This document shows positions 1,538 to 6,730 of a DNA stretch of 32,000 nucleotides, piece by piece. Every line of letters begins with the position of its first letter. The first letter of the stretch is position 1. A program made the position numbers and the translations under genes. The notes beneath the pieces were generated by a model. The model was not told the origin of the DNA. It saw only the letters and a program-made list of their open reading frames with translations, and ran no database searches. The DNA is taken from assembly GCA_024277355.1 (NCBI GenBank), contig JAJRVL010000004.1, forward strand, positions 270,001-302,000. The letters are read 5' to 3'. The DNA is from an archaeon (GTDB lineage Archaea; Iainarchaeota; Iainarchaeia; Iainarchaeales; 1-14-0-10-31-34).

Positions 1538-3255
1538 CTTATATTCTGGGATTAAGCTGCTATTACCATGACTCTTCCGCCTGCCTGCTTAAAAACGGAA
1601 AAATAATTGCAGCAGCAGAAGAAGAAAGATTTACAAGAAAAAAACACGACAACTCTTTTCCTTTTAATGCAATAACATTCTGCTTAAAAAAAGAAAAAAT
1701 CACAATACAAGAAATAAACTTTATTGCTTTTTATTAAAAACCTTTAATTAAATACGAAAGAATTCTTTCACAATACATTGAAACTTTTCCTTTAGGTTTT
1801 GTGAATTTTATTAAGAATATGCCTTTATGGCTGACAGAAAAATTAAAAGTAAGAGAAACAATCAAAAAAAAACTTAAATTTAAAGGAGACATTTTTTTTA
1901 TTGAACACCACTTATCACACGCAGCAAGTGCATTTCTTTGTTCTCCTTTTCAGGAAGCAGCAATACTTACAATTGACGGAGTAGGCGAATGGACTACAAC
2001 TGCTTTTGGAACAGGAACAGGAAATAAAATAAATTTAATAAAAGAAATAAGGTTTCCTCATTCAATTGGATTACTTTATTCAACAATTACAGCTTATTTA
2101 GGTTTCAGAGTAAATAATTCTGAATACAAAATAATGGGTTTGTCAGCTTACGGCAACATGAACAAAAAAAGAAATGAATATTATGAAAAACTAAAAAAAA
2201 TAATTGAAATAAAAGAAGACGGAAGCTTTAAACTTGACATGAAATATTTTGTTTTTCATTACGCAGAAAAAATGCCTTCAAGAAAATTATGTGAACTACT
2301 TAAAGGAAAAATAAGAAAACCAAAAGAAAAATTAACTCAAAGACACAAAGACATTGCAGCTGCCTTACAATTAATCACAGAAGAAACAATAATAAAAATT
2401 TTAAATAATGTTTTTGAAAAAACAAAAAAAGAAAATTTAGTTTTAGCAGGAGGAGTAGCATTAAACAGTGTAAGCAATGGAAAAATCTTAAAAAACACAA
2501 AATTCAAAAACATCTGGATTCAGCCTAATGCTTCAGATGGAGGAGCAAGTTTAGGAGCAGCATTATATGTATTTAATTCAATTTTAAGCAATGCAAGAAA
2601 TTATGAAATGCAGAATGATTTTTTAGGACCTGAATATTCTTCTGAAGAAATCAAAAGCATTCTTGAAAAAAACAAAATAAATTATTTTAAATTCAAAAAC
2701 GAAACAGAACTAATAAAAAAAACTGCAGAATTAATTTATCAAAATAAAGTTGTCGGCTGGTTTCAGGGAAAAATGGAATTTGGGCCAAGAGCTTTAGGAA
2801 ACAGAAGCATTATAGCTAACCCATGTAATCCAGAAATGAAAAAAATATTAAATGAAAAAGTTAAACATCGAGAATCATTTAGGCCTTTTGCACCCGCTGT
2901 ATGCAAAGAAAATGCAGTACAATTTTTTGAATGCAGTCCCTTACAAAAACCAGCTGAATTTATGTTAATGACTTTTCCAGTTAAAAAAGAATTTGAAAAA
3001 AAAATTCCTTCCGCGATTCATGTCGATAATACATCAAGAATTCAGGCAATAGACAAAAAAAACAATGAATTGTATTATAATTTAATTAAAGAATTTGAAA
3101 AATTTTCAGGAATACCCATTTTAATTAACACTTCATTTAATGTTAAAGGAGAACCAATTGTCTGTTCACCTCAGGATGCATTAAATTGTTTCATGAAAAC
3201 AGAAATTGATTTTCTTATTTTAGAAAAATACTTAATTGAAAAGAAAAAAAACTAA
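1534..3255 (+). pseudogene. carbamoyltransferase (NodU/CmcH/TobZ family) interrupted by a single in-frame TAA at 1735-1737
   Basis: Track ORFs 1483..1737 and 1801..3255 are in the same frame. Joined from ATG 1534 they give about 573 codons with family motifs: ILGLSCYYHDSSA, HHLSHAASAF, GGVALNSVSNG, NASDGGASLGAAL, FGPRALGNRSIIANP, RESFRPFAP, HVDNTSRIQ, NTSFNVKGEPIV. The stop falls inside FY[*]KP, where the family has FY-E/D-KP. Confidence 0.85.
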
Positions 3256-3263
3256 GTGAAAAA

Positions 3264-4313
3264 ATGGAAAAAGAAAAATTAAAGGAATTTGGAAAAAATT
3301 TTGCTTTACTTTTAATTACAGTCATTTTATTTCTTTTTTTTCTTGAATTAACTTTAAGGATTTTTCCATGGTTGTTTGGACAGCAGATACAAAATCAATT
3401 AATTACAAAATTCCATTCAGGAGAAACAGGAATATACAGTTATGATTCAAATATAGGAATGTTACTGCTAAAACCTGGAATTGAAACTGAAGTTTTCAGG
3501 AACGGGCATTACTGGATTCATAAAACAGACTCAAAAGGATTCAGAAATGAAAAAGAAATTAATCAAGCAGACATTATTCTGCTTGGAGACTCAATAATTT
3601 ACGGAACAGGACTAAACTATAAAAAAACTACAGCATACTTCCTGCAAAAAGAAACAGGATTAACAGTATTCAATTTATCAAGAGAAGGTGATTGTTCTTT
3701 TGAACAAAAATTCCTGTTAAACAAATATGCTCCTGAATTAAAACCAAAACATATTTTTTATTTTTTCTTTGAAAACGATTTATATGACTTAAAAATAAAA
3801 TTAACAAAAAAAGAAATGAATTATTTTATTCAAGAACAGTCAATTGATGATTTTTCTGTTAAAAGAAAAAAAATTACAGGAACAGAAACCGCTAATTTAT
3901 ACAAAAAGTTAGTTGAATACTCTTTTGTTGCAAGAACAATTCATATTTTAATTCACTTAAAAGAAGACCAAATAAAATTAACAAACAAAATTGCAAACAA
4001 AATCATTGACACAAACGGAATTGAATGGCAGTACACAGAAAAAGCAATAAAGCAGATGAAAAAATTCTCTGATTCAATCAATTCAGAATTCATTTTAGTT
4101 CCACTGACAAACGAAAAAAACCAGCAGGAAAAACTAAAACAAATTGCAGAAGAAAATGGAATTCCTTTAATTGAAACAGAAGAATTAATTGGTTATAATC
4201 AGATTCCTACAATAAAAAAAGAATATGCTTTGGAAAGAGACTGGCATTTAAATGAAAAAGGACATGAAAAACTTGCAGAAATTTTATTGAATTACCTTAA
4301 AAAAAATAAATAA
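3264..4313 (+). CDS. membrane-anchored SGNH/GDSL-type hydrolase
   Basis: 349 aa with an N-terminal TM helix (FALLLITVILFLFFLELTL). Block I is ILLGDSIIYGTG and the C-terminal block V-like sequence is RDWHLNEKGH (DxxH). Confidence 0.6.
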   Translation: MEKEKLKEFGKNFALLLITVILFLFFLELTLRIFPWLFGQQIQNQLITKFHSGETGIYSYDSNIGMLLLKPGIETEVFRNGHYWIHKTDSKGFRNEKEINQADIILLGDSIIYGTGLNYKKTTAYFLQKETGLTVFNLSREGDCSFEQKFLLNKYAPELKPKHIFYFFFENDLYDLKIKLTKKEMNYFIQEQSIDDFSVKRKKITGTETANLYKKLVEYSFVARTIHILIHLKEDQIKLTNKIANKIIDTNGIEWQYTEKAIKQMKKFSDSINSEFILVPLTNEKNQQEKLKQIAEENGIPLIETEELIGYNQIPTIKKEYALERDWHLNEKGHEKLAEILLNYLKKNK

Positions 4314-4357
4314 TCAATTAAGCAATTATTATTAATATAAAAGAACTTTATTTTTTT

Positions 4358-4519
4358 ATGGAAAAAAACAAGCCTTATCTAAAAGAATTATGGGATTTTC
4401 TTAAAGTCAGAAAAAAATGGTGGCTGGCTCCAATAATCATAATGCTGATTTTAGTTGGAATAATAATTATAATAGGAAACAACAGTGTCGTTTCAACTTT
4501 TGTTTATGCCTTGTTTTAG
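4358..4519 (+). CDS. DUF5989-family small membrane protein (53 aa, missed by ORF track)
   Basis: Own translation: MEKNKPYLKELWDFLKVRKKWWLAPIIIMLILVGIIIIIGNNSVVSTFVYALF*. It matches the remembered DUF5989 pattern ELW.FL..RKKWWL.PII......G........S....F.Y.LF. Ends at TAG 4517-4519. Confidence 0.75.
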   Translation: MEKNKPYLKELWDFLKVRKKWWLAPIIIMLILVGIIIIIGNNSVVSTFVYALF

Positions 4520-4675
4520 TTATTCAAGCATCACTAAAGCTAAATAAGAATTATGTTCATGTGAATCAGCAGTAGCAGAAAACTTAATATCAATTATTTT
4601 TTTATCTTTAATAAATTCATTTACAGCTTCTTCCAATAATTGATAATCATTAAACTCAAAAAGTTTTATTTTCAT
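4520..4675 (-). CDS. small hypothetical protein (51 aa, below ORF-track cutoff)
   Basis: Own translation: MKIKLFEFNDYQLLEEAVNEFIKDKKIIDIKFSATADSHEHNSYLALVMLE*. ATG at 4675, TAA at 4522-4520. Lies 54 nt downstream of tRNA-Gln on the same strand. No family recognised. Confidence 0.4.
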   Translation of the reverse strand: MKIKLFEFNDYQLLEEAVNEFIKDKKIIDIKFSATADSHEHNSYLALVMLE

Positions 4676-4729
4676 TAAAACACCCTATTAACTGAGTTTT
4701 AATTAGTATTTAAATGTTTAGAAAAATAA

Positions 4730-4802
4730 TAGCTCCGAGGAGATTCGAACTCCTGTCAACGGGTTCAAAGCCCGTCATCCTTGGCCACTAGACTACGGAG
4801 CT
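4730..4802 (-). tRNA. tRNA-Gln(UUG)
   Basis: Hand-folded cloverleaf: AGCUCCG UA GUCU AGUGGCCAA GGAU G ACGGG CUUUGAA CCCGU UGAC AGGAG UUCGAAU CUCCU CGGAGCU A. The A1:U72 pair is typical of archaeal tRNA-Gln. No encoded CCA. Confidence 0.9.
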
Positions 4803-4864
4803 AGCAAACCGTAGTCTAAATTTTGTTCAACCTTTTTTTAAAAGGTTGCTAGACTACGGAGCTA
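4788..4864 (-). repeat. 16-nt direct repeat (tRNA-Gln nt 1-15 plus the preceding U) flanking a palindrome and an antisense 9-mer
   Basis: CTAGACTACGGAGCTA occurs at 4788-4803 and at 4849-4864. Between the copies, in minus sense: CAACCUUUUAAAAAAAGGUUG (perfect hairpin) AACAAAAUUU AGACUACGG UUUGC. AGACUACGG is the exact complement of tRNA nt 5-13 (CCGUAGUCU). Confidence 0.85.
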
Positions 4865-5007
4865 TTAAATTAATTAATAAAATAAAAATAGTCTTATAAA
4901 TAATTTAATTTCAATAAGTTTAAATTGGTTTACTTAAAGTACTTTTTATTACTGTTTGTGTTTACAGTCCGGCTAAATAAAGTTAATAGCAAGTATGCAC
5001 TCAAACA

Positions 5008-5175
5008 GCAAAATATTTTCAAAAGTTTTTAGTAAAGCTTTTTTTGAAAAAGGTTTAGTTTGTGTTTGCAAAGCAAACCGTTTTTGATAAAACTTTTTTC
5101 TAAAAAGTTTGTTTTAATAAAACTTTTTCCAAAAAGGATTATGTTTTTGATAAAACTTTTTTCTAAAAAGTTTTT
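5008..5175. repeat. locus L1: cluster of A/T palindromic R units (about 31 nt), homologous in inverted orientation to 22049-22135
   Basis: Units lie at about 5034-5056, 5081-5110, 5111-5141 and 5142-5175. Consensus is TTTTTGATAAAACTTTTTTCTAAAAAGTTT, with a GTTTGC-AAA-GCAAAC hairpin at 5064-5078. The reverse complement of about 5020-5110 aligns by eye to 22049-22133 at roughly 85 percent identity. Confidence 0.8.
5142..5175 (+). promoter_or_regulatory. TTGA-box plus 10-bp perfect A/T hairpin ending 1 nt before tRNA-Ile
   Basis: Sequence TGTTTTTGATAAAACTTTTTTCTAAAAAGTTTTT|G. The stem pairs 5152-5161 with 5165-5174. TTGATAAAA is centred about 26 nt upstream of the mature 5' end, where an archaeal TATA box would sit. 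A related element precedes tRNA-Thr. Confidence 0.4.
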
Positions 5176-5249
5176 GGGAGAGTAGCTTAGTTTGGTGGAG
5201 CATTCGACTGATAATCGAAAGGTCGAGGGTTCAAATCCCTCCTTTCCCA
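5176..5249 (+). tRNA. tRNA-Ile(GAU)
   Basis: GGGAGAG UA GCUU AGUUUGGUG GAGC A UUCGA CUGAUAA UCGAA AGGUC GAGGG UUCAAAU CCCUC CUUUCCC A. All stems pair, and there is no encoded CCA. Confidence 0.92.
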
Positions 5250-5252
5250 TTT

Positions 5253-5663
5253 ATGAAAACTTTAACTAAATACATTTATTTTAATACAAAAAACAGAATT
5301 GAATTTGTTAATATTACTAATCAAATAGAAGAAATTGTTTCTGAAAGCAAAATAAAAGAAGGAATAGTTTTAGTTAATCCAATGCATATTACTGCTTCAG
5401 TTTACATTAATGACGCAGAATCAGGTTTAATTGAAGATTATAAAGAATGGTTAAAAAAATTGGTTCCAGAAAAAGATTACAAGCATAATTTAACTGGAGA
5501 AGACAATGCTTTTTCTCATTTAATGAGAACAATAATGGGAAGAGAAGTTACAATAGCAATAACTAATGGAAAACTTGATTTTGGCACCTGGGAACAAATT
5601 TATTACGCTGAATTTGACGGTCAAAGAAAAAAAAGAGTTTTAGTTAAAGTTTTAGGTGAGTAA
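5253..5663 (+). CDS. yjbQ: YjbQ/UPF0047 family protein (secondary thiamine-phosphate synthase-like)
   Basis: 136 aa with [27 protein letters not shown] and [16 protein letters not shown] motifs typical of UPF0047. The ATG is 3 nt after the tRNA-Ile discriminator base. Confidence 0.8.
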
Positions 5664-6155
5664 TTCAACTATTTTTTTTCCAAACTCTCTTGCAGCTTTT
5701 GGTCCATTTGCAGTAATAATATTTCCTGAAACTTCAATGGAATTCCCTGAAAACAAAGCTCCTTTTTCTGTTAAATTTTCTTTTTCGCTTTCAAATGAAG
5801 TAGCTTTTTTTCCTTCCAATAAACCTGCATTAGCTAAAATTGAAGGCGCAATACAAATTGCCGCAACAACTTTTTGTTTTCTGTTAAATTCTTCAGCTAA
5901 ATTCAATACAGTTTGATTGTCAAAATATTCTGCTGCACCGCTTCCGCCAACAAAAATTACTGCATTAAATTCTTCTGAATTAATTTCTTCAATTAATAAT
6001 TCTGCTTTTATTGTTCCATTTAATTTTCCTTTGCATTCCCCTTTTTCAGTTGAAGCAACAACAGTTTCAATTCCTGCTTTTTCTAATTCTTCTTTTGGAT
6101 GAAATAATTCTTCATCCCTAAAATTCTGTTTTGCAATAACAAACACAACTTTCAT
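5652..6155 (-). CDS. DJ-1/PfpI family protein
   Basis: 167 aa with the nucleophile-elbow motif [17 protein letters not shown] and the upstream FVGGSGA. Its 3' end overlaps yjbQ by 12 nt (convergent). Confidence 0.85.
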
Positions 6156-6225
6156 ATAAATCCCATATAAAAAATGAAAGAAAAAAAATAAGAATGTTTT
6201 TAAAGAAAGAGAACTTGAATTTATT

Positions 6226-6726
6226 ATGCAGGAAAAAAAAGAATCAGAATATAAAATTGTTTCAGATTACCAAAAACTAGAAAAACAAGTAGAAAAACAA
6301 ATAAGAAACGGCAACATAAAACTTCCTTTTGGGGGTTTTTATCAAACAGGTTATTTAGGGCATTCAATAAAAGCAATAGTTAAAGAAGAAAAACTTGTAA
6401 GTTTAATGGTTTATTCAATTAATGAAAAAACATGCGATATTGCATATATTTGGCATAATCCTCGTCTTGCAGTTGAATACAAAAAAACAAACAAAATATC
6501 TCCTTCAAAATTTTTATTAAAATCAATTGCTAAAAAAGGAATTACATCATTTACAACACAATATTTAACAAAAACCGGCAGAAAAATGGTATTAAAATTA
6601 ATTAAAGAAAACGTAATAATTGAAAAAGGATTGAAAAGAATAAATCCAAAACCCAAATTCAGGAAATTTCTTAACAAAATGCCAACAGAATATAAATTTA
6701 AATTAGTAAAACGACATCCCAAATAA
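6226..6726 (+). CDS. hypothetical basic protein
   Basis: 166-aa ORF filling the gap between flanking genes. No motif recognised. Confidence 0.4.
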   Translation: MQEKKESEYKIVSDYQKLEKQVEKQIRNGNIKLPFGGFYQTGYLGHSIKAIVKEEKLVSLMVYSINEKTCDIAYIWHNPRLAVEYKKTNKISPSKFLLKSIAKKGITSFTTQYLTKTGRKMVLKLIKENVIIEKGLKRINPKPKFRKFLNKMPTEYKFKLVKRHPK

Positions 6727-6730
6727 AATA

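Follow-up and report, generated by a model that had tools for sequence, protein, structure and literature searches.

A small palindromic repeat in tRNA leaders, introns and gene ends of Iainarchaeales is probably a mobile element

A window of 32,000 nt from an Iainarchaeales genome (assembly GCA_024277355.1, contig JAJRVL010000004.1, positions 270,001–302,000, forward strand) contains two clusters of a short palindromic sequence, which we call the R unit. R units are, with good probability, copies of a small non-coding palindromic mobile repeat. The family has spread by copy-and-paste, leaving unusually long and variable target duplications of 17–42 nt, and the two window loci are independent insertion clusters of this family. 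The description 'MITE-like' (miniature inverted-repeat transposable element), given as one option in an original prediction made from the letters of the window, agrees with the genome-wide copies, the target duplications, the empty sites in sister genomes and the variable copy number reported below. The genome of the window, designated G000, comprises 1.13 Mb in 11 contigs with 28% GC; it is 96% complete and many of its tRNA genes have introns. It was compared with five genomes of the same genus (G001–G005). Open reading frames (ORFs) in G000 are our own crude calls, and distances to them are approximate.

The two window loci and the anatomy of the R unit

The R unit is ~31 nt long and consists of a conserved box (TTTTGATAAA, with the variants GGTAAA, GATCAA and GATTAA) followed by an A/T hairpin of 9–12 bp with a loop of 1–4 nt. 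The hairpin arms co-vary between units (AAAAC/GTTTT, AAACC/GGTTT, CAAAC/GTTTG, TCAACC/GGTTGA and TAAATC/GATTTA), and the stem is perfect in 33 of the 51 genome copies.

A repeat search of the window recovered inverted arms of 50 nt at 5023–5072 and 22084–22133, which are 94% complementary and 17,011 nt apart, and a second inverted pair of 31 nt at 5144–5174 and 22049–22079 (94%). The original prediction of two tRNA-linked loci in opposite orientation, about 17 kb apart, is therefore sound, and there are four units at each. It had counted three tandem units before tRNA-Ile; there are four, the first being set off by a small GC hairpin. At locus 2 its count of four was right and its placement directly beside tRNA-Thr was not, as a gene for a 66-amino-acid Zn-ribbon protein lies in between. 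The extended similarity of the two loci comes from a composite of ~85 nt, in which a small hairpin stands between two units.

When the window was searched with the 17-nt core TTTTGRTAAAVCTTTTT, allowing up to two mismatches, nine matches were found; shuffled sequences gave a mean of 2.4 and at most 7, so that none of 100 shuffles reached nine. All nine are units: 5027, 5082, 5112 and 5145 on the plus strand, 21925, 22005, 22062 and 22113 on the minus strand, and, in the leader of tRNA-Gln, a degenerate copy at 4821. The units and associated repeats of the two loci are:

5025–5055, plus: unit 1 of locus 1, of the 'GTAAAGC' subtype, with one stem mismatch (nhmmer 24.3 bits; repeat family D12)
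5059–5079, plus: companion small hairpin GTTTGC-AAA-GCAAAC in the middle of the composite (composite -21.6 kcal/mol, z -3.1; matching composite at 22049–22131)
5080–5110, plus: unit 2 of locus 1 (nhmmer 25.6 bits)
5111–5140, plus: unit 3 of locus 1, degenerate (nhmmer 19.5 bits)
5143–5174, plus: unit 4 of locus 1, its hairpin ending 2 nt before tRNA-Ile +1 and its box centred at about -27 (equal placement in five congeners, with 1–4 units)
21913–21943, minus: unit of locus 2 overlapping the stop codon of ORF 21557–21913 (plus) (nhmmer 20.7 bits)
21993–22023, minus: unit of locus 2, 'GGTAAAGC' subtype (nhmmer 24.5 bits)
22023–22049, minus: target duplication that repeats the final 27 nt of the Zn-ribbon gene, 25 of 27 nt being identical (from the sequence; G002 is alike)
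22049–22079, minus: unit of locus 2 with a perfect 10-bp stem (nhmmer 26.3 bits; -7.3 kcal/mol, z -3.0)
22083–22100, minus: companion small hairpin of the locus 2 composite (from sequence and folding)
22101–22131, minus: unit of locus 2 adjoining the Zn-ribbon stop codon (nhmmer 30.0 bits)
22442–22469, minus: further degenerate unit, adjoining tRNA-Thr(CGU) on its 5' side and preceded by an E element (described below) at 22470–22500 (from the sequence)
4821–4848, plus: degenerate unit in the tRNA-Gln leader, between an inverted (4809–4819) and a direct (4849–4864) copy of the tRNA-Gln 5' end

Copies across the genome and their placement

A profile built from eight of the window units identified ~51 non-overlapping units at 36 loci in G000. 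Sixteen of these loci lie no more than 150 nt from a tRNA gene (p = 3e-21 with the whole genome as background, 2.5e-6 with non-coding space), and others are at further stable RNAs. The circumstance in which the original prediction would have fallen, a lack of additional copies in the genome, clearly does not apply. An ARAGORN 'tRNA-Lys' of 493 nt (C9:33821–34313) was excluded from these statistics; it has a 403-nt intron, lies within an A/T-rich region that resembles coding sequence, and is a false positive almost beyond doubt.

Units adjoin the 5' ends of the genes for tRNA-Ile, Val(CAC), Val(GAC), Ser(GGA) and Lys(CUU), and the 3' ends of those for tRNA-His, Ser(AGA), Leu(UAA), Leu(GAG) and the rRNA-operon tRNA-Ala. 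The introns of seven tRNAs begin with units, and the family is also represented in the 16S-tRNAAla-23S spacer. In the RNase P RNA (C7:21768–22061; L082:69–362, minus), which still scores 111.7 bits in Rfam, a unit consisting of the hairpin plus ATCAAAAAC occupies a variable region close to P3. The remaining loci are mostly between convergent ORFs, and gaps between divergent ORFs are almost free of units.

Orientation follows rules as well. Approximately 16 of 17 units that adjoin a stable-RNA gene or a stop codon have the hairpin toward the gene and the box away from it, and, relative to the transcript, the copies in introns, the rRNA spacer, ORFs and the RNase P RNA all point the same way; of the recent insertions at 3' ends, those with duplications still visible mostly point the other way. 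Across the genus, units before tRNA-Ile, Val(CAC) and Val(GAC) have kept their exact position. No bias with respect to replication strand was seen on the 527-kb contig, where the strands of the units are mixed. The placement rule could reflect targeted insertion, selection on the folding of precursor RNA, or both.

Target duplications, empty sites and variable copy number

Five loci in G000 have flanking direct repeats scoring 18–39, against a 99th percentile of 12 and a maximum of 16 in 600 random controls. In other genomes, Methanosarcina among them, 12 of 123 units had a duplication score of at least 12, compared with 0 of 354 controls. The duplicated pieces are often the ends of neighbouring genes: the terminal 27 nt of the Zn-ribbon gene, the tRNA-Leu(GAG) 3' end, 3' ends of ORFs, and regions made up of a Shine–Dalgarno sequence plus ATG. 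One insertion junction has 5 nt of microhomology, too little to argue from.

The site after the Zn-ribbon gene is empty, with a T-run alone, in G003, G004 and G001; it has one unit in G005, and in G002 and G000 a composite followed by a copy of the gene end of 25–26 nt. Locus 2 began as a composite inserted behind this gene and gained further units later. A second case is an ORF at C3:80959–81453 (L078:260–754, minus), in which an in-frame unit together with a perfect duplication of 39–42 nt accounts for 26 added codons. Its orthologues in G004 and G001 have different in-frame units at other positions, and those in G005 and G003 have none. The product is a Lys/Glu-rich protein of 164 amino acids without a Pfam domain; its C-terminal half is conserved, and its disordered N-terminal half is a hotspot of in-frame units in several congeners (QTFSKKFDQK, QPFLEKKLDQK).

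The number of units before tRNA-Ile varies from one to four among six congeners, tRNA-Lys(CUU) has a unit in G000 where G003 has a classical TATA box, and G000 and G003 also differ in tRNA intron content. Several insertions have, in addition, an inverted partial copy of the target beside the unit, as in the tRNA-Gln leader of G000 and at tRNA-Ile and tRNA-Ala of genome G028. At these two genes of G028 (L064, L065) and in genome G033 (L073) the gene end is followed in turn by a partial inverted copy of itself, the unit and a direct copy of itself; in this architecture the flank of the tRNA and the inverted copy of that flank form the trailer hairpin.

Distribution beyond the source genome

The exact core motif was present in all nine genomes of the family, at 3–18 copies each, and in 38 of the 201 genomes of a phylum sample; a reversed-pattern control was near zero. 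A longer pattern, for which we estimate from base composition one chance match or fewer over the whole collection, matched more than 115 loci in a species collection. The archaea concerned are Candidatus Iainarchaeum, Micrarchaeota, Woese-, Pace-, Nano- and Aenigmatarchaeota, Methanosarcina, ANME-1 (anaerobic methanotrophic archaea)/Methanophagales and Syntrophoarchaeum. Unexpectedly, the pattern was also found in several Clostridia/Oscillospiraceae assemblies and on three viral contigs. Rfam gave no match on the units at the Methanosarcina, ANME and Clostridia loci.

In ANME-1 and Methanomicrobia (L096, L098, L149, L194, L202, L205) the unit is followed by a conserved segment of ~30 nt (AGTGTTAATCTCGTGGAATCTCGTGG plus a T-run), and a second unit is often present upstream in head-to-head arrangement, which may represent a small transcript or a pair of the REPIN type. 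Tandem arrays of ~110-nt repeats occur in Methanosarcina sp. (L106:4271–4526, L169:4251–4387, L095:7852), each repeat having a unit, a second palindrome (AAGCC-T6-G-AAAAGGCTT) and a GC-rich piece of 50 nt. The bacterial copies are 27-nt units in a Clostridia assembly (L097, L100, L102, L107, L116, L173, L174) and in Clostridium thermobutyricum (L129); they sit within a conserved GC-rich repeat of ~230 nt on at least seven contigs of one assembly. They result either from cross-domain transfer or from a shared recognition motif.

Search for a mobilising enzyme

Several observations weigh against regarding R units as mobile elements. Seven Pfam families (Y1_Tnp, TnpB, Cas1, RT, DDE_Tnp_1, rve and DDE_3) had no match in G000, and the sole tyrosine recombinase of this genome looks like XerA. 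The unit has no terminal inverted repeats, and the ends of unit and composite are not inverted repeats of each other. To our knowledge, duplications of this length fit no described transposition mechanism, and a part of the duplication pattern could stem from local replication slippage. Finally, placement is non-random, which suggests that, besides spreading selfishly, the unit has a function or inserts in a targeted way.

A link with IS200/IS605 or RAYT (REP-associated tyrosine transposase) systems was considered and rejected. G000 has no Y1 gene; Y1 (PF01797) was found in three of the nine family genomes, and the six without it, G000 included, all carry units. The GC hairpins at insertion sequence ends in relatives are unrelated to the unit. 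No parent insertion sequence was found for the R unit.

As G000 has no transposase match, copying would depend on a host enzyme, on an enzyme beyond the families searched or on template switching during replication. Our best guess is either replication-linked template switching or an unrecognised enzyme that acts on a single-stranded hairpin; the stem may have stayed palindromic because the element, or whatever copies it, works via a DNA hairpin. The TTGATA within the box is similar to HUH nick sites, which may be a lead to such an enzyme. Copies persist at places that tolerate additional sequence: tRNA leaders, trailers and introns, the rRNA spacer, the 3' ends of genes and a variable arm of RNase P RNA all hold them, and within proteins they are found in low-complexity parts and read in frame. 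Some have probably been co-opted, with the box at the TATA position ~27 nt before five tRNA genes.

Use as a promoter or terminator

The alternative that keeps the most weight, although we consider it improbable, is that the unit is a regulatory cassette of the host for stable-RNA genes, combining an oligo-T/hairpin terminator or insulator with a TATA-like promoter from which a leaderless or short-leader tRNA starts right after the hairpin; repeats would then reflect reuse of the cassette. Further features of the window that bear on this and the following sections are:

5176–5249, plus: tRNA-Ile(GAU) (Rfam 72.8 bits; ARAGORN)
4918–4927, plus: classical BRE (TFB recognition element)/TATA-like sequence GTTTAAATTG, a conserved block upstream of tRNA-Ile in G000, G001, G003, G004 and G005, with a putative promoter role
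4964–4999, plus: decayed GC-rich 'E' leader element, intact before tRNA-Ile in G001 and G002
4730–4802, minus: tRNA-Gln(UUG) (Rfam 66.8 bits)
21944–21992, plus: GC-rich two-hairpin module of the tRNA-trailer type (near-identical module after tRNA-Ser(AGA))
22135–22332, minus: 66-amino-acid Zn-ribbon gene, its duplicated 3' end being 22131–22157 (PF01396, E = 2.5e-10; orthologues in five congeners)
22370–22441, minus: tRNA-Thr(CGU) (Rfam 62.4 bits)

If transcription starts at +1, the box is centred ~27 nt before the start of tRNA-Ile, Val(CAC), Val(GAC), Ser(GGA) and Lys(CUU). In G003 tRNA-Lys(CUU) has a classical TTTAAATT at equal distance and the tRNA-Val(CAC) box reads TTTTAATATAA; in two species nothing other than a unit separates tRNA-Val(CAC) from the stop codon of the preceding ORF. 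The spacing matches that of the tRNA genes of Nanoarchaeum equitans, in which box A is 26 nt upstream of the transcription start (PMC3491384). Read in the opposite direction, the 3' arm plus the box resemble a BRE/TATA sequence, and two such copies are 31 nt before an ATG.

Most copies, however, are at places that require no promoter, including gaps between convergent genes, introns, an ORF and the RNase P RNA, and the motif is present in bacteria, which lack TATA-binding protein. The box also contains a conserved G/C, which TATA boxes do not usually have. A scan of distances from units to ORF starts gave no clean promoter peak, and an excess of units 10–25 nt before ATGs is due at least partly to duplicated 5' ends of genes. 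Upstream of the tRNA-Ile units, moreover, five congeners conserve the block GTTTAAATTG; if this is a promoter, the units there would simply be part of a long transcribed leader. Leaderless tRNAs made without RNase P were discarded as a general explanation, as RNase P RNA is present in G000.

Termination was considered from the T-runs. Units contain T5–T6 runs, with a mean of 1.8 runs of at least T5 in one reading and 0.9 in the other. In the sense strands of G000 ORFs, however, runs of T5–T8 are over-represented 2–6 times relative to simple expectation (1251 T6 runs in 874 ORFs), so the T-runs of a unit are unlikely by themselves to stop this polymerase; this also weakens a T-run terminator as the cause of the orientation bias. 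The same strands contain 27 T9 runs and none of T10 or longer, a hint that transcription in this organism is terminated by very long T-runs only. Judging from these sequence features, use of some copies as promoter or terminator is possible within a family of mobile repeats.

A role in RNA structure

Less probable still is that the unit is an RNA structural module within the parts of precursors that are discarded (leader, trailer, intron), where it would help folding or processing or form a U.A-U triple helix from two U-runs and an A-run. The strong bias toward transcribed and discarded segments, with the hairpin beside the mature RNA ends, favours such a role; the hairpin stem co-varies, GC-rich hairpin modules around tRNAs show equal mirror placement, and in the 'GGTAAAGC' subtype the T-run of the box can pair with the A-run as an alternative fold. 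Copies are nevertheless present in both orientations relative to transcripts, and two U-runs plus one A-run are available in just one of them. Box positions 7–8 do not co-vary in G000 with the loop and arm positions that they would contact; across the G000 units only the two hairpin arms co-vary, and no co-variation of a triplex third strand with the stem was found.

Stability argues in the same direction. Single units are weak as RNA hairpins (-4.7 to -7.3 kcal/mol, z -1.3 to -3.0); the ~85-nt composites reach -18.5 to -21.6 kcal/mol, with z of about -3 to -3.6. Rfam, at gathering and permissive thresholds (E up to 5), matched the tRNAs of the window alone. An RNA role also leaves unexplained the copies in ORFs, between convergent genes and in bacteria, the target duplications and the empty sites.

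Inversion of the intervening segment

That the inverted clusters act as recombination substrates which flip the 17-kb segment, another proposal of the original prediction, is highly improbable: they do share inverted similarity of 50–85 nt at 85–94% identity, and a small local inversion of tRNA-Gln is bordered by a unit that inverted target copies accompany, but we reject the proposal because positions 3200–23000 are collinear, together with both flanks, in all five congeners, and furthermore the repeats are short, many other copies in both orientations show no visible rearrangement, and the insertion that gave rise to locus 2 postdates the split from G003, G004 and G001. With respect to the tRNA-Gln region (4730–4864), the tRNA is inverted relative to G002 and G003, and the leader unit with direct and inverted copies of the tRNA 5' end is present in G000, G001 and G004; to judge by its sequence, this arrangement resembles a scar left by a small inversion or insertion rather than an attenuator.

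A second, GC-rich module family

A different family of modules is also associated with stable RNAs and, like the units, shows mirror placement around tRNAs. The GC-rich 'E' hairpin (CAGC..CTGA..GAA..GTGCA) has a co-varying stem with tandem G.A pairs and is followed by a 7-nt spacer and a GC hairpin; Rfam gave no match to it. It precedes tRNA-Thr, Ser(GCU), Asn, Gly(UCC), Leu(CAG), the operon tRNA-Ala and 23S rRNA, with sites in the window at 22470–22500 (minus) and 4964–4999 (plus, decayed) and in G000 at C2:349–356 kb, C11:68.3 kb and C7:31.44–31.95 kb. Its reverse complement occurs after other tRNAs and at the start of some introns (tRNA-Asn of the window, 14469–14634; tRNA-Arg(CCU) of G003).

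Discussion

No description of the R unit was found in a literature search by topic and sequence words. The unit is like bacterial REP/BIME (repetitive extragenic palindromes/bacterial interspersed mosaic elements), prokaryotic MITEs and, in entering ORFs in frame, Rickettsia palindromic elements (RPEs), yet it departs from each in the features that define it. REP, BIME and REPIN sequences are bacterial repetitive extragenic palindromes moved by RAYT Y1 transposases (PMC2817692, PMC3116915, PMC3733652). The R unit resembles them as a palindrome of 20–40 nt with a short conserved 'head' at the foot of the hairpin, in tens of copies that are mostly after genes or between convergent genes, in tandem and composite arrays, and with head-to-head pairs in ANME and Methanomicrobia. 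In contrast, its head is TTTTGATAAA and not GTAG or CGTC, its stem is A/T-rich where that of REP is GC-rich, its target duplications are long, it is found inside tRNA introns, RNase P RNA and ORFs, its hosts are archaea, and G000 has no RAYT/Y1 gene.

Like prokaryotic MITEs (Correia/NEMIS, ERIC and those of Sulfolobus and haloarchaea; PMC10969869), which sometimes supply promoters or terminators, the R unit is small, non-coding, multi-copy and polymorphic and makes target duplications. Unlike them, it has no terminal inverted repeats, no parent insertion sequence or cognate transposase was found for it, and its duplications are 17–42 nt and variable where theirs are short and fixed. With RPEs it shares a palindrome that enters protein genes in frame as well as RNA genes, a reduced host genome and the lack of its own transposase (PMC10969869). 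RPEs are ~100–150 bp, belong to one bacterial genus and are not described with long target duplications, whereas the R unit is ~31 nt (~85 nt as a composite) and occurs in many archaeal phyla; the likeness is analogy only, with no sequence relation and no shared host.

Two further systems share single features with the unit. The PIT/BoxC bacterial intrastrand-triplex repeats (PMC4666352) are dispersed and have three arms of homopolymer type able to fold back, as does the R unit; their arms are mirror repeats suited to a triplex, while in the unit two hairpin arms co-vary and the third has no matching changes. Box A of N. equitans tRNA genes and the R box are both A/T sequences ~26–27 nt before the tRNA 5' end (PMC3491384), but N. 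equitans has TTTAAA and no RNase P, whereas G000 has RNase P RNA, for most of its tRNAs a classical promoter is found further upstream, and the R box does not follow the TATA consensus.

With regard to introns, the unit invites comparison with Thermoproteales. Fujishima et al. reportedly described in 2010 (Mol Biol Evol) transposed tRNA-intron families of this order, with related modules in the introns of different tRNAs, which implies that introns were gained or grew through mobile sequence. R units, by contrast, are not confined to tRNAs but occur at gene ends and in ORFs and RNase P RNA too, and they have target duplications at the DNA level; the introns concerned are at the canonical 37/38 site. 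The target duplications of R units are far longer and more variable than any we know of, and since no described transposition mechanism fits them, a new enzyme or a replication-based route may await discovery.

A more specific possibility, which we put forward tentatively, is that an undescribed copy-and-paste process gives rise to the R unit. It would need no transposase from the element, read box plus hairpin in single-stranded DNA and make target duplications of 17–42 nt, about the length of the element itself. Such a process would operate across DPANN, Methanosarcinales/ANME and possibly Clostridia, and would be a main source from which DPANN tRNAs obtained their long introns, leaders and trailers. 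If this is true, tRNA introns grow by insertion of hairpins.

For annotation, R units are a source of false ORFs, odd tRNA predictions and apparent 'regulatory cassettes'. The presence of the motif in cultured Methanosarcina makes its mechanism, and its use as promoter or terminator, accessible to bench work. For the organism, the finding means that a genome of 1.1 Mb without a recognisable transposase has an active repeat which inserts into proteins and also into RNA genes, namely RNase P RNA and the rRNA spacer; for DPANN archaea, it offers a source at the DNA level for their oversized, hairpin-packed tRNA introns and their structured leaders and trailers, with turnover between species of one genus.

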